Shown one piece after another: positions 15,466 through 23,903 of a stretch of 64,000 nucleotides of DNA. A model generated the notes under the pieces. It was not told where the DNA came from, did not search any database, and saw nothing but the letters and a program-made list of their open reading frames with translations. Both the position numbers and the translations under genes were made by a program. Every line of letters starts with the position of its first letter. The stretch's first letter is position 1. The DNA comes from Escherichia phage SUT_E420: the sequence record OQ990039, one strand, 5' to 3'.

Positions 15466-15998
15466 TAATAAGTAACCAATTCCTGTACAAATCGCAGGCT
15501 GTTATCACTGTTTGCGCCAGTTGCGTAAACTAAACGAGTAGATTCATAGTTGTAATCTAGAATCGTATTATCCAGATATACATCTGCCTCTAGTTTTTGA
15601 TTACTAAAGATTGTGGATACAAAAGCACTTTCAATATGACCATATTGATACATTTCTAGAAGAAGGTTAGCACCACCTAGAACTACTGTCTGCTGATCTT
15701 TCAGAAATGTAGGTAAAGCATCCCCAATCTTAGAAATTGGGGTGTAAATATCATGTGTAATATCATCTGGCAGTGGACGATCAGCACGAATAAATAGGTC
15801 AGAAGCTCCAATCATACGTTCTCTAACGGCGTATGGAAGAGCTAAATAAGTACCCGCACCAATGATGATGTTATCTGGATTCAACACGTCCAGTTGAGAA
15901 TAGAAAGCATCTAGTTCTTCTTTGAAGGAACCCCATGGAAGTTTACCGCGGAGGCCGAACTCCCCATTCGGCCCAACTGCATACATTGCTGTAATCAT
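15465..15998 (-). CDS. frd: dihydrofolate reductase
   Basis: 177 aa; N-terminal [22 protein letters not shown] is DHFR-like; overlaps thyA and nrdB by one codon each. Confidence 0.8.
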
Positions 15999-17140
15999 AA
16001 GAAATCTCCAAATTCATTACCCAGATCTTTCAGAGTATCAGTAGAGGTCTCAGTTACCTGACCTACACGGTAGGCTGCACCAATCTGGATTTCTTGTGGA
16101 GCAGGCTGTAGAGAAGTAGTATCCAACCAGTTCATAATCCACGGAATAGGGTTTTTGGTGATTACTGGTAAATGACTAGGCCATTCTACACCGATGTGCA
16201 TAAATGCATTACGTCCCACAAAATACAGATATTCTTCTAGAAGTTCTGCATTCAAGCCAATCAGACTACGACCTTTGAAAATGAAATGACCCCATTCAAT
16301 TTCAGTTTTCAGAGTTTTCAGGAGCTGTGCTGGTGCTTTAGCCACTGCTTCATCTACCAGATCTTTGTCAAATTGCTGAAACATAATCTGGATGATTGCT
16401 TTGGACATCTGAGTGTGCAGAGCTTCATCTTTAGCGATTAATTGCAGATTTTTAGCAATACCTTGCAGAATATCGTTCTCTGCTAATGCAAAGGTACATG
16501 CAAAGGATGCGTAAAACTGCATTGCTTCCAGACCATAGATCGCAAAGTAAGCGTCTAATAGTTTAGCCTGAGTTTCACGTTTAACTTCAGGGAACTCAGT
16601 TTCTGGATATGTATTGTCGCCACGATGATCGCGTACTGCGATGAAATACTGACCTAACTGGTACAGTTCATCGAATAGTTCAACAGAATCAGCGATGCGC
16701 GCGAATGCTTCTTGGTTTTTGGTTACAGAATCAATAAATTCTGCTGGATCAGTCAGCACATTACGAATAATATTGCTATAAGCACGACTATGCAGGTCTT
16801 CAAAATAGCTCCACTGTTTGAGCATACCTTCCAATTCTGGACGACTTACAAGCGGCATAATAGCTGCTTCAGGGGCACGACTAATAAAGGAATCAGTTTG
16901 AGTTTGCCATGCTAAGTTCAGGAGTGTAATTTCCTGAATTTCTCGTGGGAGATTAGGCCATTGTTTCTTATCTGCTTCCAGACTGATTTCAGTTTCAGTC
17001 CAAAATTGAGAGCGCTGCAGAAGTGCCAGACGTTCTAGTTCTGGATGTGCTACACGTACATAATCTGCGATACCGAGAGAATCTCCCAGGAAAAGGTCGG
17101 CGTTAGTATGATCCCAATTCAGGTTTAGTAAAGTAGTCAT
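15995..17140 (-). CDS. nrdB: ribonucleotide reductase small (beta) subunit, class Ia
   Basis: 381 aa; di-iron ligand motifs (EALH, EGMLKQWSYFEDLHSRAY) in a ferritin-like fold. Confidence 0.85.
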   Translation of the reverse strand: MTTLLNLNWDHTNADLFLGDSLGIADYVRVAHPELERLALLQRSQFWTETEISLEADKKQWPNLPREIQEITLLNLAWQTQTDSFISRAPEAAIMPLVSRPELEGMLKQWSYFEDLHSRAYSNIIRNVLTDPAEFIDSVTKNQEAFARIADSVELFDELYQLGQYFIAVRDHRGDNTYPETEFPEVKRETQAKLLDAYFAIYGLEAMQFYASFACTFALAENDILQGIAKNLQLIAKDEALHTQMSKAIIQIMFQQFDKDLVDEAVAKAPAQLLKTLKTEIEWGHFIFKGRSLIGLNAELLEEYLYFVGRNAFMHIGVEWPSHLPVITKNPIPWIMNWLDTTSLQPAPQEIQIGAAYRVGQVTETSTDTLKDLGNEFGDFL

Positions 17141-17171
17141 TGATTTTCCTCTTTCTCACTATTTCAGGAAT

Positions 17172-17200
17172 ATTATAGCAAATCTGGTAGCGATTAGCAA
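17172..17200 (-). promoter_or_regulatory. sigma70-type early promoter (minus): -35 TTGCTA, 17-bp spacer, -10 TATAAT
   Basis: Plus strand ATTATA-N17-TAGCAA upstream of nrdB. Confidence 0.7.
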
Positions 17201-17206
17201 GTAAAA

Positions 17207-17689
17207 TTATAAACTATCAAGCTCCAATAGTTTAGCATCGCGCCATTCTATAGCATCCTCTAATTCTTTGAATGTTTTAGTATGTTTTACACCTTTTCTA
17301 GCAATCTGGACTTGGTAAGATCCGCTTGCTTTTTGGTGTATATTCTTAATACCTAACTTATTGTCTTTGTGCGCTCCGACATTCTTTCCATTGTTAAATC
17401 TATCAGATGCTAATAAATTAATTGCTCTATTATCATGACGTATTCTGTTGTCATGGTCTACTTCTTTTGGAATGTATCCATGAGTGATATAGAATGCTAG
17501 GATATGTGCATAGTATTTTTTACCCCTTACTTGCATTACTATATACCCTGAGCATTTTTCTAGAGAACCTGCTTCTTTGCCAGCAAACTTAGTATTAAAG
17601 GATTTATCTTCTCTAGGTTTGTGGGTAAAGATTCCAGTTTCTGGATTATAGTCAAATAACCCAGCTATTTCTTTATATTTTTCTTCCAT
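17207..17689 (-). CDS. HNH homing endonuclease with AP2-like DNA-binding domain (160 aa)
   Basis: HNH core (VDHDNRIRHDNRAINL) plus C-terminal GIKNIHQKASGSYQVQIARKGVKHTKTFKELEDAIEWR; lies between nrdA and nrdB. Confidence 0.65.
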   Translation of the reverse strand: MEEKYKEIAGLFDYNPETGIFTHKPREDKSFNTKFAGKEAGSLEKCSGYIVMQVRGKKYYAHILAFYITHGYIPKEVDHDNRIRHDNRAINLLASDRFNNGKNVGAHKDNKLGIKNIHQKASGSYQVQIARKGVKHTKTFKELEDAIEWRDAKLLELDSL

Positions 17690-17723
17690 AATCTAAAATT
17701 ACAGCTATGATAGGCCTAATAAA

Positions 17724-17737
17724 GGGGCTTTCGCCCC
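17724..17737 (-). terminator. GC tetraloop hairpin terminator (GGGGC-TTTC-GCCCC) after nrdA
   Basis: On the minus strand the hairpin is followed by TTTATT; sits between the nrdA stop and the HNH gene. Confidence 0.45.
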
Positions 17738-17744
17738 TTATTTA

Positions 17745-20078
17745 TTATAATTGACAACCACCGGATGCACATCCAGCAGCAGCTTCTTCACCTGCACCTC
17801 CACCATTTGCAGTATTGAAGTTTGCATAGTAGAAAGTTTTCCACCCATACTTAACAGCAGTCATGAAATCACGAACTACTACTGGGCCAGGAATGATTTC
17901 ATTCTCAAACTTGGTGTAGTCATAGTACATATTCGTACTGATAGACTGACTGAAGAATTTCTGCATAGTTGCTACCCACTTGATCCACTCGATACGATCT
18001 ACATCATAAGCCAGTTTATAGCTCATTAACGTTTCCCAATCGGTTGCACCTGGAGCAATTGCAATTACTTTATTTACTGCACTACCCTTGATAGATACAA
18101 TCTTACGAGGTGGTTCGATAGAGTTAGTAACACCTAACAGAACAGAAGAACTTTCTCCCGGCATCTGAGCAGTCAGAACAGAGTTACGCATACCATATTT
18201 CAGAATATCTGCACGCAGAGACTCCCAATCCATTTCTAGACCTACGGATACCAGTTCATCAACAGTTTTCTTGTACGTGTCGATTACCAGAATTCCTTTA
18301 GATGGTTTAGTACGATCAAACCACTCACATGCACCCTGTTCTTTAGCTAGGCGTACAGAGGCTTTATGCAGGAAGTAAGACAGTTTTTCAGCCTCACGGT
18401 GAATCCAGTTACGAGCTTCAATACCTTCATAAGCCAGACCTTCTGCTGCCATTGCACCTGCTGCGTTCATCAGGCCAATACCAACATTACGACGTTTCTT
18501 AGCCGTATATTCCATAGTTGGGAACGGATAATCCTGAATTTCAATAATTGTATCAACGAATTTCAGAAGGATGTAGCAAGTTTTTTCCCACTCAGCCAGA
18601 GATTCCATGCGTCCAAGTACAACACCGCCTAAGTTACACAGAGATACTTCACCAATATCCTCCGGCTTCATTTGATCAAGTTGTTCTTTTGTTTTATACA
18701 GTTCCGTGATATGATGGAACGGGCGTGTAGGCTGAGTAATTTCAACACAAAGGTTTGTCATACGGATCGGATCAAGGAAGTTACCGTGACGATTAGATTC
18801 CCCGATGTGATGAGCATACATACGTCCTGTTTCCATTCGGATACGTAGCCAAGTATCTAGGATTTCTTTTGCAGAGACTTTAGGAGCTGCTGGAACTGTT
18901 TTTCCTTCGTGGTCGATCTTTGTAAGAGATGCCACACGTTTCTCCGCTGCCACGTAGATTTCTTCAAATTTAGCCTCGTCATCACTATAAAACGCTTCAT
19001 GAACTTCTGGAGCATAGAAGTATGACATTAGCGTAATATCTTCGTTTTTAAGATAACGTTTTAACAAAAGATTGTTAAAGCTCAGAGAATAGTCCATCTT
19101 ATCGATTTTATTCTCATCTGTAGCACGTTGTTGCTTAACCTGCATCAATTGAATGATTTCAGGGTCGAAGTACGTATAAGACACTGTGGCAGAACCACCA
19201 CGAGTTTGCTGAGTATTGGCCTTTACTGAGCGGTCAATGTGTCGATAATATGGCAGTTTTCCGGAATGCGGGAATGCCCCATTTCGCACCGGATCAGCAA
19301 TTGATCGGCTTTCAAGATGATACCCGATTCCCGCTCTGGCTGCGACCATTTTGAAGACGATGTGCTCGGCGGTGTCGATTGAATCCAACGTGTCAGTGGA
19401 ATCCACGAGGCAGCAACTAGCAAATCCACGGTCACTAGAGCGCAGACCAACCAGTGGCGGCGTAGGAATGTTGATTTTGTGGAGTGACATTGCGTTGTAG
19501 AGGTCGATTGCATCTAGAATTGTCCAGTTAGGTTGAGATAACATCGCCATTGCCATACCCATGTAGGCAAACTGCGGAGTTTCATAGATTTCACCAGTGG
19601 CTATGTTACGACGGGAATACTTATCAAAGAACTGTTTCAGCCCACCACTAGTAAAAAGACGGTCACGATCATGGTCGATAACCTGATTCAGAGCTTCAAA
19701 TTGCTCATCGGTAATCCATGCACTCATGTCTTCCCATGCACCTACGCTAACCATATGGTCATGGAAGAAGCGCAGAGAAGGTGGTTCGAAGGAATCATAG
19801 AGGCGTTTACGCATTTGCGCAAGACGTAATTCCTTTGCTGGCACATCATATGCTGGATTATCTTTGATAAGACTTTCAGCAGCTTTAATTAATGCATCCA
19901 TCAGAGTGTCGGAATCTACAACCCCTTTAGGCAGAGTTTTTTGAGCAGCCATAGTAATGGCTGACCAACTTACATCAACTGTTTTGCAACCATACTCCGC
20001 CCAACCATTGAGTTTTTCAGGAGCAAAGTCTTCTACAGTACCGTCACGTTTAATTACTTTTTCAATGCGATGGCTCAT
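17745..20078 (-). CDS. nrdA: ribonucleotide reductase large (alpha) subunit, class Ia
   Basis: Start set at the Met of MSHRIEKVIKRDGT (ATP-cone) with ribosome-binding site AAGGAAAG; the track start is 35 codons upstream; catalytic Cys and C-terminal CxxC tail (CASGGCQL) present. Confidence 0.9.
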   Translation of the reverse strand: MSHRIEKVIKRDGTVEDFAPEKLNGWAEYGCKTVDVSWSAITMAAQKTLPKGVVDSDTLMDALIKAAESLIKDNPAYDVPAKELRLAQMRKRLYDSFEPPSLRFFHDHMVSVGAWEDMSAWITDEQFEALNQVIDHDRDRLFTSGGLKQFFDKYSRRNIATGEIYETPQFAYMGMAMAMLSQPNWTILDAIDLYNAMSLHKINIPTPPLVGLRSSDRGFASCCLVDSTDTLDSIDTAEHIVFKMVAARAGIGYHLESRSIADPVRNGAFPHSGKLPYYRHIDRSVKANTQQTRGGSATVSYTYFDPEIIQLMQVKQQRATDENKIDKMDYSLSFNNLLLKRYLKNEDITLMSYFYAPEVHEAFYSDDEAKFEEIYVAAEKRVASLTKIDHEGKTVPAAPKVSAKEILDTWLRIRMETGRMYAHHIGESNRHGNFLDPIRMTNLCVEITQPTRPFHHITELYKTKEQLDQMKPEDIGEVSLCNLGGVVLGRMESLAEWEKTCYILLKFVDTIIEIQDYPFPTMEYTAKKRRNVGIGLMNAAGAMAAEGLAYEGIEARNWIHREAEKLSYFLHKASVRLAKEQGACEWFDRTKPSKGILVIDTYKKTVDELVSVGLEMDWESLRADILKYGMRNSVLTAQMPGESSSVLLGVTNSIEPPRKIVSIKGSAVNKVIAIAPGATDWETLMSYKLAYDVDRIEWIKWVATMQKFFSQSISTNMYYDYTKFENEIIPGPVVVRDFMTAVKYGWKTFYYANFNTANGGGAGEEAAAGCASGGCQL

Positions 20079-20220
20079 TTGGCTTTCCTTTTTATAGTTA
20101 TCAGGATTTAAGGAATATTCTACTTTATTATCGGTCATTAGGCAAATAAAATTTTCTGATAGAAAAGGCCCGAGTATTTTCATACCCAGGCCCTGTATAT
20201 TACCAGTCTAGCTTTTTAGC

Positions 20221-20442
20221 TTATTCAATTACTTTAGCTCTAGCTACTTCTTTTAATAGAATATCTATGGAGGTGCTCAGCTCGTTATAATTGAATGGTT
20301 TATTTGGATTTGAGGTTACAATTTTCCACGCTAGGGTTGTCTTAGGACTTTCTTCCCCTTCCTTACGTGTAATCATATTAGCAGCACTCAGTGAAGTACG
20401 ATGTATTTTAGTTTTACGGCTCAGATGAACGACGTTTCCCAT
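20221..20442 (-). CDS. hypothetical protein (about 74 aa; start corrected)
   Basis: Track ORF overlaps phoH; internal ATG at 20442 with GGAAGGTG upstream sits just after the phoH stop. Confidence 0.35.
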   Translation of the reverse strand: MGNVVHLSRKTKIHRTSLSAANMITRKEGEESPKTTLAWKIVTSNPNKPFNYNELSTSIDILLKEVARAKVIE

Positions 20443-21548: not shown

Positions 21549-23423
21549 ATGAATCGCAATGAAGAACTAAAGTATAAAGAAATGCAGGCGTTAATTAGAA
21601 ACTGCAAAGAGATTATCGAAGGGTCAGCAGATGAAGAGCTGCTGTTTAATAATGCTAATAAACCCTCAGAACGTTTCCCTACACAAAGGGATATGCTTGC
21701 AGGTGAATTGAGTAAGTATCTGATTCTAGAAGAAATGCCAATTCAGATTCGAAATGCTCATATGATTGGGGATATTCATTTCCATGATGCTGATTATGCT
21801 GCATTAGGCATGACTAACTGTTGTCTGGTAGCTTTGGAAGATATGTTGAAGAATGGTATGAAGGTTGGTAATGCTGAAATTAGCACTCCAAACTCTATCA
21901 CTACTGCGGCGGCTATTACTGCTCAGATTATCACTCAGGTTAGCTCCCATCAGTATGGTGGTACTTCTGTAGACCGCCTTGATGAAGTATTAGCCCCTTA
22001 TGTTCGTAAATCATATGACAAAAATCATGCGTTTGCAAAACGTTGGACTAAGGATGAAGCCAAAGCATCCGTAATGGCTACGGAGATGACTGAAAAGGAA
22101 GTCTATGACGCTTGTCAGGGTTTAGAATATGAAATCAATACCATGTTCAACTCTAACGGTCAGAGTCCATTTATTACCTTTGGTTTTGGTCTAGGAACTT
22201 CTTGGGAAGCACGTCTAGTACAGAAAGCAATACTGAAAGTACGCATGGATGGTTTAGGTATCAATAAACGTACAGCTATCTTCCCGAAACTGGTATTTGT
22301 ACTTCGTGATGGTGTTAACATGAAACCAGGAGATGTTAATTATGACATCAAGAAGTTAGCTATGAAATGTACTGCTGAACGTATGTATCCAGATTATATC
22401 AGCTATGACAAAGTTGTAGAAGTTACTGGAGACTATAAAGTTTCTATGGGCTGTCGTTCATTCCTAGCTGCTACAGAAGATGGTGAAACTGCCGGTCGTA
22501 ATAACTTAGGTGTTGTTTCTGTAAACTTGCCTAGAATTGCTATCGAAGCTGAAGGAAATATTGACCTATTTTTTGATTTGCTTGAACTGCGTGTGGATAC
22601 AGCGTTAAAAGCATTGGAGTGGAGAGTTGATCGCTTAAAATACATCCAAGCTAAAGCTGCACCCATCCTCTATATGTCAGGAGCCTTTGGGTTACGCTTG
22701 GAGCCTGATGAATATGTATTCGATCATTTCTATAATCGTGCTTCTGTATCTCTAGGGTATATTGGCTGCCATGAAATGCTACAGTTCATGTTTGGCAAAG
22801 ATATAGACACAATGTCCGAGACCTGCATCAAGTTTGTTCAGCGTGTATTGCAGTACATGCGGGATAGAGTCGATCAGAAGAAGGAAGAAACTAAGTTAGG
22901 TTATAGCCTGTATGCTACACCATCAGAATCCCTATGTGATCGCTTTTGTCGTCTAGACCGTGAATATTTCCCGGAACATGAAGATATTCTGTCCAAAGGA
23001 TACTACACTAACTCTCACCACCTTGATGTGGAACGTAAAGTTGCTCCTAACGTGAAATTTGATTATGAATCTAACTTTACTCCGATTGCTTCTGGTGGGT
23101 GTATTTCCTACGTAGAATTACCGGATATGAAACGATTCCCAGATGCACTGGAATGGGTTATTAATTATGCTGCTAGTAAGGTTCATTACTTCGGTATTAA
23201 TACTCCAGTGGATTCTTGCGGTAAATGTGGATTCTTAGGTGAAACAATAGCATCCGAAGATGGATTTAAGTGCCCTATCTGTGGTAATCATGACCCCGAA
23301 ACTCTTGAAGTAACTCGTCGAGTTTGTGGGTATCTTGGAAATCCGGGTGCTCGTCCATTTAACCCCGGCAAACAGCACGAGGTGATGGGCAGAGTGAAAC
23401 ATCAGGATATTCGAGCTAAATAA
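21549..23423 (+). CDS. nrdD: anaerobic ribonucleoside-triphosphate reductase (class III)
   Basis: 624 aa; C-terminal glycyl-radical motif RVCGYLG preceded by Zn-ribbon cysteines (CGKCG...CPICGNH). Confidence 0.85.
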   Translation: MNRNEELKYKEMQALIRNCKEIIEGSADEELLFNNANKPSERFPTQRDMLAGELSKYLILEEMPIQIRNAHMIGDIHFHDADYAALGMTNCCLVALEDMLKNGMKVGNAEISTPNSITTAAAITAQIITQVSSHQYGGTSVDRLDEVLAPYVRKSYDKNHAFAKRWTKDEAKASVMATEMTEKEVYDACQGLEYEINTMFNSNGQSPFITFGFGLGTSWEARLVQKAILKVRMDGLGINKRTAIFPKLVFVLRDGVNMKPGDVNYDIKKLAMKCTAERMYPDYISYDKVVEVTGDYKVSMGCRSFLAATEDGETAGRNNLGVVSVNLPRIAIEAEGNIDLFFDLLELRVDTALKALEWRVDRLKYIQAKAAPILYMSGAFGLRLEPDEYVFDHFYNRASVSLGYIGCHEMLQFMFGKDIDTMSETCIKFVQRVLQYMRDRVDQKKEETKLGYSLYATPSESLCDRFCRLDREYFPEHEDILSKGYYTNSHHLDVERKVAPNVKFDYESNFTPIASGGCISYVELPDMKRFPDALEWVINYAASKVHYFGINTPVDSCGKCGFLGETIASEDGFKCPICGNHDPETLEVTRRVCGYLGNPGARPFNPGKQHEVMGRVKHQDIRAK

Positions 23424-23465
23424 GCTAATCAGCCGGGTTGCTAGTCGACCTGGCTTTTATTTTAT

Positions 23466-23494
23466 TTGCTTTCAGCCAAAAATTTATATATAAT
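23466..23494 (+). promoter_or_regulatory. sigma70-type early promoter (plus): -35 TTGCTT, 17-bp spacer, -10 TATAAT, with conserved leader
   Basis: Followed by TAGATTTATAAATTTGAGAGGAG, the shared early-leader element ending in the ribosome-binding site. Confidence 0.7.
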
Positions 23495-23522
23495 AGATTT
23501 ATAAATTTGAGAGGAGAAAGGT

Positions 23523-23903
23523 ATGGAATTAAAGCCCTATATAGTTGAGTCTACATGTGGTGGTTTCCATCTTGGCGTAGACGATCTTAGAGAAGCTATT
23601 TTTGCATCTACTGGAGATTATTCCCATCTAGAGGGTATTGGATATTCATCAATTATTGGTGATTGGGTAGAAACAAATCTAGATGTATCACCATATAACT
23701 CAGATTGCTTGTTTGACGAGGATGAGGATGAAATAAAGTATGATATTGAATTTGTTTATAATAGAGTATTAAAAGTATACCAACGTAATCCCGAGGGATA
23801 CGAAGATATTACTAAAGGTATTAAACAGTATCTTAAAGATGTATACTATAATTTTTCTGATGAAGACCTAGAAACAGTTGCAGTGGAGTTTAATAATGGC
23901 TAA
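23523..23903 (+). CDS. hypothetical acidic protein (126 aa)
   Basis: First gene of the overlapping-gene operon 23523-26423. Confidence 0.45.
   Translation: MELKPYIVESTCGGFHLGVDDLREAIFASTGDYSHLEGIGYSSIIGDWVETNLDVSPYNSDCLFDEDEDEIKYDIEFVYNRVLKVYQRNPEGYEDITKGIKQYLKDVYYNFSDEDLETVAVEFNNG

Follow-up and report, generated by a model that had tools for sequence, protein, structure and literature searches.

A probable I-HmuI-like (HNH_3) free-standing homing endonuclease gene between nrdA and nrdB of a T5-like Escherichia phage

Introduction

The genes for the two subunits of the class Ia RNR of Escherichia phage SUT_E420 are separated by a small open reading frame for an HNH endonuclease, which raises the question of what kind of element this is and how it came to lie there. 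We analysed the stretch of 64,000 nucleotides (OQ990039) that contains the locus, hereafter the window, which belongs to a T5-like phage and is 100% identical to Escherichia phage SUT_E1520. An earlier note, made from the letters alone, had described the gene as a mobile HNH-AP2 insertion lying behind a terminator and lacking a promoter. The element itself is ordinary and already known, the same gene being annotated as 'homing endonuclease' in dozens of GenBank records, and attention was drawn in 2012 to the nrdA–nrdB hotspot of T5-like phages (PMC3326045). Our reading, which we consider probable when taken together with the homing mechanism and the read-through expression proposed below, is that the gene (the W-type gene) encodes a homing endonuclease of the I-HmuI-like HNH_3 group and is free-standing.

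The locus and its alleles

Both nrdA and nrdB are intact, and the endonuclease has its own open reading frame inside their spacer (Table 1). No Rfam intron model matched at the locus, where a sub-threshold chance match to a snoRNA was the sole hit. The gene is thus free-standing, as the earlier note had held, and its term 'intron-less allele' was wrong, since no intron is involved. A tblastn search for paralogues within the window returned the gene itself alone. Copies 100% identical to it occur in phages SUT_E1520, SUT_E520, and SP01.

Table 1. Coordinates in the window of the features discussed in the text
Feature	Position	Strand	Basis or remark
Homing endonuclease gene (W-type)	17207..17689	-	160-aa open reading frame, ATG start, TAA stop
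nrdA (class Ia RNR large subunit), upstream flank	17745..20183	-	Translation and annotation of identical or near-identical phage records
nrdB (class Ia RNR small subunit), downstream flank	15995..17140	-	Translation and annotation of identical or near-identical phage records
Cassette-specific block, 532 bp, in place of ~33 bp of the empty allele	17209..17740	.	Alignments and 32-locus listing
Last ~100 bp of nrdA, co-travelling with the cassette	17748..17845	-	32-locus sequence comparison
N-terminal β-rich region, residues 1–58	17516..17689	-	Likely to contact DNA, as I-HmuI does
HNH (His-Me finger) nuclease core, residues 59–104, with D78, H79, N91, N100, and N103	17378..17515	-	Pfam HNH_3 and alignment
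AP2-fold DNA-binding domain, residues ~113–159, three strands and a helix	17213..17353	-	
Hairpin AAGGGGC-GAAA-GCCCCTT (AAGGGGCTTTCGCCCCTT), G/C core 17724–17737	17722..17739	-	Between the nrdA stop and the endonuclease start
nrdB promoter TTGCTA-N17-TATAAT, TG-extended	17172..17200	-	Downstream of the endonuclease gene; 10/12 consensus match

We found the locus in 529 phage records. Only about 47 carry the W-type gene; in 295, at least 80% of the length of the empty junction is matched. Among the aligned alleles (31 loci and the window, 32 in all, sampled without phylogenetic correction), 17 are empty and 7 are W-type. The empty allele has a spacer of 106 bp (106–107 bp) with a different terminator. 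Such a 106-bp spacer stands in place of the gene in AZ23 and T5_ev212, whose flanks are 98–100% identical to those of the window; T5_ev212 is even 100% identical through nrdB, yet it lacks the endonuclease gene. The junctions are clean. Shared sequence is found again up to 17208, at GTAAAATT, and from 17741, at TTTATTA. The GC content is 34.4% in the cassette-specific block and 33.7% in the gene, compared with 42–43% in nrdA and nrdB. Presence or absence at one site among close relatives, with such junctions, is the behaviour of a mobile element. The comparison of the interval across T5-like phages, which the earlier note had proposed, therefore bears out a mobile insertion that close relatives can lack; the gene is far from universal at this site, most T5-like records being without it. 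Two copies are irregular: that of SB6 shows a partial tandem duplication, and that of H8 is apparently truncated at the C-terminus, in a record with frame problems whose values are unreliable.

Domain structure of the protein

The 160-aa protein matches Pfam HNH_3 (PF13392) over residues 59–95 (E = 1.6e-8, 34.5 bits against a cut-off of 24.8) and PHROG 99, 'HNH endonuclease' (E = 1e-49), and the HNH_3 match recurs in all 43 of the aligned homologues. In this alignment, Asp78, His79, Asn91, Leu92, and Asn103 are invariant, and Asn100 is conserved in at least 90% of the sequences. By analogy with I-HmuI, we take Asp78, His79, Asn91, Asn100, and Asn103 to supply the catalytic Asp-His pair, the structural Asn, and the metal-binding Asn. 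The core has a ββα-metal fold resembling that of I-HmuI. The HNH assignment of the earlier note thus stands, and the catalytic residues, whose absence from an alignment would have spoken against it, are in place.

The C-terminal domain was recognized by a less direct route. Neither the whole protein nor its C-terminal 56 aa alone matched Pfam PF00847 (AP2) at E ≤ 10, and NCBIfam likewise gave no AP2 match, so that the assignment was made via homologues and structure. Over the C-terminal region, 30 of the 43 aligned homologues match PF00847 (best E 4.7e-11), and hhalign against six plant AP2 domains, whose seed sequences were entered by hand, gave a probability of 90% for residues 119–152. A structure model built from 8 sequences was too poor (pLDDT 63.6) and a 43-sequence model was used instead; the region consists of a three-stranded sheet packed against one helix. 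A phmmer search against PDB sequences gave only a chance match (E 0.72). Both Pfam domains, HNH_3 and AP2, are present in many of 4136 homologues, and one 90% cluster holds 27 member sequences. The AP2-like domain claimed earlier is therefore upheld as a C-terminal AP2 fold, even though the protein itself has no PF00847 match.

Hairpin, promoter, and expression

The GC hairpin that the earlier note had placed at 17724–17737 lies exactly there, as the core of a longer stem-loop with a folding energy of −13.7 kcal/mol. Its U-tract is broken in the direction of transcription (minus strand, UUUAUUAGG) and a terminator scan gave a terminator-like score on the plus strand alone, which makes it a plausible rather than a textbook nrdA terminator. 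The hairpin is kept in all close W-type alleles, and the empty, T5-type, and AKFV33-type alleles have CAAGGAGATCTTCGGGTCTCCTTTTTC at this place. It is thus probably a terminator, possibly a leaky one, that belongs to the cassette; the earlier view of it as a terminator after nrdA holds in part, since it is not simply the terminator of nrdA but a part of the cassette replacing the usual terminator of the family.

We found no sigma-70-like promoter on the minus strand in the interval from the hairpin to the endonuclease ATG, and no Shine-Dalgarno (SD) motif (GGAG, GAGG, or AGGA) occurs within 20 nt before this ATG. The promoter scan covered sigma-70 consensus sites only and has no statistical power (16 sites in the region against 15.9 expected by chance), so we used from it only the upstream absence and the strong nrdB site. 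That site, which no other strong one accompanies in the vicinity, is conserved in all empty and W-type alleles, and the annotations of T5 and AKFV33 list its equivalent as a promoter; the scan thus agrees with the earlier statement that nrdB has a promoter and the endonuclease gene has none of its own. A hairpin at the end of the nrdA unit, with neither a promoter nor an SD motif behind it, suggests that the endonuclease is made from transcripts reading through the hairpin and that its expression is probably kept low. As the sense U-tract is weak, the hairpin may not terminate at all, and 'read-through' would then simply be co-transcription.

Linkage to the nrdA 3′ end and selection on the gene

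The cassette does not travel alone. The last 100 bp of nrdA are 77–88% identical to the window in all non-W alleles and 90–99% identical in W alleles, whereas the next 200 bp are 95–100% identical in most loci. W-type alleles have their own nrdA codons at 17772–17795 (GCTGCTGCTGGA), including one extra Ala, and because of these codons, the last ~100 bp of nrdA is the candidate region for differences in target or immunity. Across the 31 loci and the window, the flank is co-inherited with the gene, and the history of the gene is unlike that of the flanks. The nrdA 3′ variation is not perfectly diagnostic of carriers: the final QL or TI codons occur in both carrier and non-carrier classes, and one empty allele (L021) has a carrier-type nrdA end, as would be expected after partial conversion or loss.

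Against the EPS7 copy, the W-type gene has a dN/dS of 0.02 (dS 0.53), close to the 0.016 of nrdB, and the protein is therefore maintained. In SP01, the dS of the gene is 0.03 and that of nrdB 0.31. Between Tequintavirus and Epseptimavirus, the gene (dS 0.53) is about as diverged as nrdB (dS 0.69), so that much of its distribution could reflect vertical descent with repeated loss and not frequent homing. Recent transfer between the genera was considered and rejected, since the comparison of the window with EPS7 shows no identity peak at the gene, which is as diverged as its flanks.

Comparison with known systems

I-HmuI and I-BasI of the Bacillus phages SPO1 and Bastille (PDB 1u3e) belong to the same His-Me finger group (HNH_3/zf-His_Me_endon, group 2, PMC5714182). 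I-HmuI and the W-type protein are both monomer-sized proteins whose several small modules would contact a long site. However, I-HmuI is encoded inside a group I intron, whereas the W-type gene is free-standing; the C-terminus of I-HmuI is a helix-turn-helix module instead of an AP2 fold, and the sequence identity is only 17–20%. Enzymes of the I-HmuI type nick one strand (PMC3017599).

The HNH_3 and AP2 architecture of homing endonucleases has been described (PMC5714182). The HNH-AP2 endonucleases of phages and cyanobacteria (Magnani et al. 2004, as cited in PMC5714182) have HNH_3 followed by AP2, as in the W-type protein, whose AP2 domain is too diverged for any Pfam AP2 score. T5 hegF (F-TflVI) encodes a protein of the same family, with 42% identity over 154 aa. 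Orthology with it was rejected at this identity, as hegF lies at 23245–23742 of T5 next to pseT.2-like genes, far from nrdA and nrdB. The W-type gene carries the name F-TflVI in EPS7 and mar003J3, and the EPS7 label is a best-hit name transfer.

A parallel in niche and lifestyle is mobE of phage T4, a free-standing HNH gene that also lies between nrdA and nrdB. Its HNH subgroup (group 1, together with enzymes of the PF01844 type, PMC5714182) and its phage family are both different. MobE cuts in nrdB and is preferentially inherited (PMC2790892), and the parallel between T4 mobE and T5-like phages has already been drawn (PMC3326045).

Other HNH genes in the spacer

Not every other relative has an empty spacer, which corrects the earlier note: in T5 and AKFV33 it holds HNH genes of other types, inserted at a second point that lies downstream of the promoter. 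T5 hegH (P-TflVIII; F-TflVIII in DT57C), AKFV33 orf096, and the L030-type gene share the spacer, the phage family, the protein family, and the architecture with the W-type gene, at 36–44% full-length identity, and hegH is likewise polymorphic (about 75 records). In contrast to the W-type gene, which lies upstream of the nrdB promoter, these genes lie downstream of it and abut the nrdB ATG, with the family terminator kept. With the promoter upstream, the nrdB ATG adjoining and, in T5, a good SD motif, the hegH-type genes would head the nrdB unit and be expressed with it. Their linked flank is the first 300 bp of nrdB, which is divergent, whereas that of the W-type gene is the nrdA 3′ end. None of the alleles examined has both a W-type and a hegH-type gene.

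A tentative extension, which we think has the odds somewhat against it, is that the 106-bp spacer is a two-slot landing pad contested by at least four mutually excluding HNH-AP2 lineages. The W-type lineage would enter upstream of the nrdB promoter, bring its hairpin, mark the nrdA 3′ end, and be expressed by read-through only; the others would enter downstream, leave their mark at the nrdB 5′ end, and be driven by the strong nrdB promoter. With ~70 bp between the slots, the rival would be co-converted and erased whenever homing occurs, and such erasure would explain both the lack of a double allele and mosaics such as SP01 and L021.

Proposed mechanism and alternatives

In the homing mechanism that we propose, the protein would bind a long site via its N-terminal β region and its C-terminal AP2-fold domain, and the His-Me finger formed by Asp78, His79, Asn91, and Asn103 would nick or cut the DNA. 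During mixed infection with a T5-like phage that has an empty spacer, the genome of the latter would be cleaved near the nrdA 3′ end and the terminator; the predicted cleavage zone lies around GAAGAAGCAGCNGGTTG and the terminator region of the empty allele. Repair from the carrier genome would then copy in the 532-bp cassette, with the gene and its own hairpin, together with the last ~60–100 bp of nrdA. The co-copied nrdA segment, which differs in sequence and includes the extra Ala codon, probably makes the carrier immune. No assay of an enzyme of exactly the W-type lineage was found in the literature searched.

Purifying selection as strong as that on nrdB, together with a divergence between genera that is similar to that of the flanks and suggests long residence, would also suit a nuclease kept mainly for the benefit of the phage, either by cutting co-infecting relatives, as in marker exclusion or competition, or by stimulating recombination around the nrd genes, with self-copying as a by-product. 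Nuclease genes mark the boundaries of genetic exchange in phages (PMC10448857), and the break in identity between the window and T5_ev212 at the gene fits this. However, the gene is dispensable, as only about one in ten T5-like records carries it, and we regard such a benefit as an unlikely main cause of its maintenance; benefit and homing are not mutually exclusive and are inseparable by sequence.

The life cycle of homing endonucleases predicts decay after fixation, and the apparent C-terminal truncation in H8, the partial tandem duplication in SB6, and the missing promoter and SD motif could be taken as signs that the gene is what remains of an earlier invasion, inactive or in decay. The intact reading frame, the conservation of all catalytic residues, the dN/dS of 0.02 over a dS of 0.53, and the 27 sequences in one 90% cluster argue against this, and we consider it very improbable. 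Hardly any credence is given to a protein that acts chiefly as a DNA-binding regulator of the nrdA–nrdB region via its AP2 fold or as the maker of the T5-type genomic nicks. AP2 domains are elsewhere the domains of transcription factors, site-specific nicks are present, and annotated, in T5-like genomes (PMC10644984), and the DT57C paralogue at the locus is annotated as 'nicking homing endonuclease F-TflVIII'; but most T5-like phages lack the gene, including ones with identical promoter and terminator regions, the nicks are a general trait of T5 and BF23, and a pure regulator would not need the conserved nuclease residues. Homing by a free-standing endonuclease thus remains the reading that we prefer.

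Implications

The presence and absence of such genes is already routine in the comparative genomics of T5-like phages. The present locus is a warning not to build phylogenies on the nrd region, which is a recombination boundary, and it corrects the label 'F-TflVI'. If the two-slot arrangement is true, the very strong purifying selection would reflect continuing competition instead of decay. The spacer is a neat natural setting in which to study how homing endonucleases compete and how their expression is throttled: its 106 bp bring together two insertion slots, four lineages, and two expression strategies. If characterised, the W-type enzyme would join the rare-cutting HNH-AP2 nucleases or nickases whose target is defined.

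Distribution of the endonuclease gene

Of the 529 phage records matching the nrdA-nrdB locus, about 47 carry the endonuclease gene of the window (W-type; 78-100% nucleotide identity). In 295 records, 80% or more of the empty junction is matched, and about 75 records carry T5 hegH, a different gene. We classified the spacers of 31 oriented loci together with that of the window; 17 of the 32 alleles are empty (106-107 bp), seven are W-type, including two variants at 75-78%, five are of the T5 hegH type (with T5 itself present twice), two of the AKFV33 orf096 type, and one of a fourth type. The junctions are clean, with ~33 bp replaced by a 532-bp block. Those ~33 bp contain the terminator usual in the family (CAAGGAGATCTTCGGGTCTCC-TTTTTC), and the hairpin that precedes the endonuclease gene therefore belongs to the cassette. 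In Salmonella phage vB_SenS_SB6, part of the endonuclease gene, its first ~90 codons, is duplicated in tandem; this creates a second, truncated 108-aa ORF and lengthens the spacer to 902 bp.

The window comes from a T5-like phage. Over 15900-20300 it is identical (100%) to Escherichia phages SUT_E1520 and SUT_E520, and several Tequintavirus genomes reach 97-98% identity to it. Every gene of the nrdA-nrdB stretch lies on the minus strand, and the ORF and hairpin core were placed exactly by the earlier note. The GC content of the endonuclease gene is 33.7% versus 42-43% in the flanks, which is no outlier within the window.

Features of the nrdA-nrdB locus in the window and in related loci
Feature	Record	Position	Strand	Remark
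nrdA	window	17745-20183	minus	first in order
Inverted repeat	window	17772-17800	minus	nrdA tail
nrdA-endonuclease spacer	window			55 bp; contains hairpin
Hairpin core	window	17724-17737
Cassette	window	17209-17740		532 bp
Endonuclease ORF	window	17207-17689	minus	160 aa
Endonuclease-nrdB spacer	window			66 bp; contains promoter
TTGCTA-N17-TATAAT, TG upstream	window	17200-17172	minus	directly past endonuclease stop codon
nrdB	window	15995-17140	minus
Dihydrofolate reductase and thymidylate synthase genes	window		minus	after nrdB
Second-slot gene	T5 (L005)	5537-6061
Second-slot gene	AKFV33 (L006)	3354-3851
Second-slot gene	L030	~2988-3494
Endonuclease gene	EPS7 (L003)	1511-1993
Partial duplication	SB6 (L004)	1965-2291
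75%-identical variant	H8 (L031)	~2950-3440
Carrier-type block, empty site	L021	~3320-3394		nrdA 3' end

Expression signals

The hairpin (AAGGGGC-GAAA-GCCCCTT, -13.7 kcal/mol) is followed in the sense direction by an interrupted U-tract, TTTATTAGG, and the terminator scan accepted the site in the plus orientation only; we therefore regard it as a probable terminator, possibly leaky. As the earlier note had proposed, nrdB has a promoter and the endonuclease gene has none of its own: there is no sigma-70-like site between the hairpin and the endonuclease ATG, and the TTGCTA-N17-TATAAT site is a T5-type early promoter for nrdB, whose ribosome-binding site is GAGGA. The 20 nt upstream of the endonuclease ATG (CATAGCTGTAATTTTAGATT) contain no Shine-Dalgarno motif. 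From this layout of signals, expression of the endonuclease by read-through is a reasonable inference. In addition, the nrdA tail of carrier (W-type) alleles contains an inverted repeat, CUGGAUG-UGCA-CAUCCGG, which forms a hairpin in the predicted RNA.

The endonuclease protein and its relatives

The PHROG 99 'HNH endonuclease' match spans the whole protein, and Pfam HNH_3 matches residues 59-95 above its curated cut-off. In an alignment of 43 homologues of similar length, drawn from the 4136 found by profile search, Asp78, His79, Asn91, Leu92, and Asn103 are invariant and Asn100 is nearly so; thus, the catalytic His-Me finger is intact. Pfam AP2 (PF00847) gave no match on the window's copy but matches 30 of the 43 homologues in the alignment, and in hhalign residues 119-152 align to AP2 domains of plants with a probability of 90%; the latter two results show the C-terminal third to be an AP2-fold domain. 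The HNH_3 and AP2 architecture has been described for homing endonucleases (PMC5714182).

Among T5 paralogues, the protein is closest to hegF (F-TflVI; 42% identity), hegE (44%, in the N-terminal part), and hegH (36%); it shares 44% identity with AKFV33 orf096. The copies in EPS7 (CP000917) and mar003J3 are labelled 'H-N-H endonuclease F-TfIVI', which is a name transfer, since hegF is located elsewhere in T5; we rejected orthology with hegF, which lies at 23.2 kb and is only 42% identical. The EPS7 record also annotates nrdA as a 1230-bp fragment.

Between the window and EPS7, the endonuclease gene has a dS of 0.53 and a dN of 0.010 (dN/dS 0.02), and nrdB a dS of 0.69 and a dN of 0.011 (dN/dS 0.016); therefore, the protein is maintained by selection. 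The gene either has been in both genera about as long as the genera have been apart or passed from one to the other long ago. The H8 variant reads as truncated ahead of the AP2 helix, with nrdB of the same record one base out of frame; the cause is either genuine decay or an error in sequencing. The S124 copy, which is intact, carries a different hairpin of its own, AGAGGGTTAATTATAACCCTCT, with a T-run.

Mobility, linked flanks, and a second slot

T5_ev212 has no endonuclease gene yet is 100% identical to the window over 15700-17200, and its identity drops to 84-94% in the site-adjacent 300 bp of nrdA. Over the full set of loci, identity to the window in the final 100 bp of nrdA is 90-99% in carriers versus 77-88% in non-carriers, and the adjoining 200 bp are mostly 95-100% identical. 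Carriers have GCTGCTGCTGGATG with an extra Ala codon in common, where others have GCAGCNGGTTG. This picture is consistent with co-conversion and with immunity at the target site, so the cleavage site would likely lie near the nrdA 3' end and the terminator. An empty-site allele (L021, IMGVR_UViG_2974606035) has a carrier-type GCTGCTGCTGCTGG block at the nrdA 3' end together with empty-type last nrdA codons and terminator, and looks like a putative product of partial conversion or loss. In the same allele, identity is 80% in a patch located 600-1200 bp into nrdA.

Three further HNH-AP2 lineages are located at a second point, which lies downstream of the nrdB promoter and adjoins the nrdB ATG. 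They retain the family's usual terminator, and linked to them is a divergent nrdB 5' portion (85-87% identity in the first 300 bp versus 94-97% in the rest). None of the alleles examined has both slots filled. In Salmonella phage SP01, the endonuclease protein is 100% identical to that of the window, and its gene has a dS of 0.03 versus 0.31 for nrdB. The first 300 bp of SP01 nrdB are 85.7% identical to the window and resemble T5/AKFV33-type alleles; this mosaic suggests that the other slot may once have been occupied.

Niu et al. (PMC3326045) reported that AKFV33 and T5 have an HNH gene between nrdA and nrdB and likened the hotspot to T4 mobE (PMC2790892), and later studies of T5-like phages regard the presence or absence of homing endonucleases as chiefly responsible for local differences (PMC10644984, PMC8594841, PMC12639943). 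The literature searched yielded no assay of the W-type lineage. The earlier note's reading of the gene as a likely mobile homing endonuclease is supported, and the finding is real; elements of the W-type endonuclease's kind are ordinary and already annotated. What is added is that there are two insertion slots, which differ in expression context and linked flanks, and that none of the examined alleles has both filled; this is modestly interesting rather than surprising, and it is testable.
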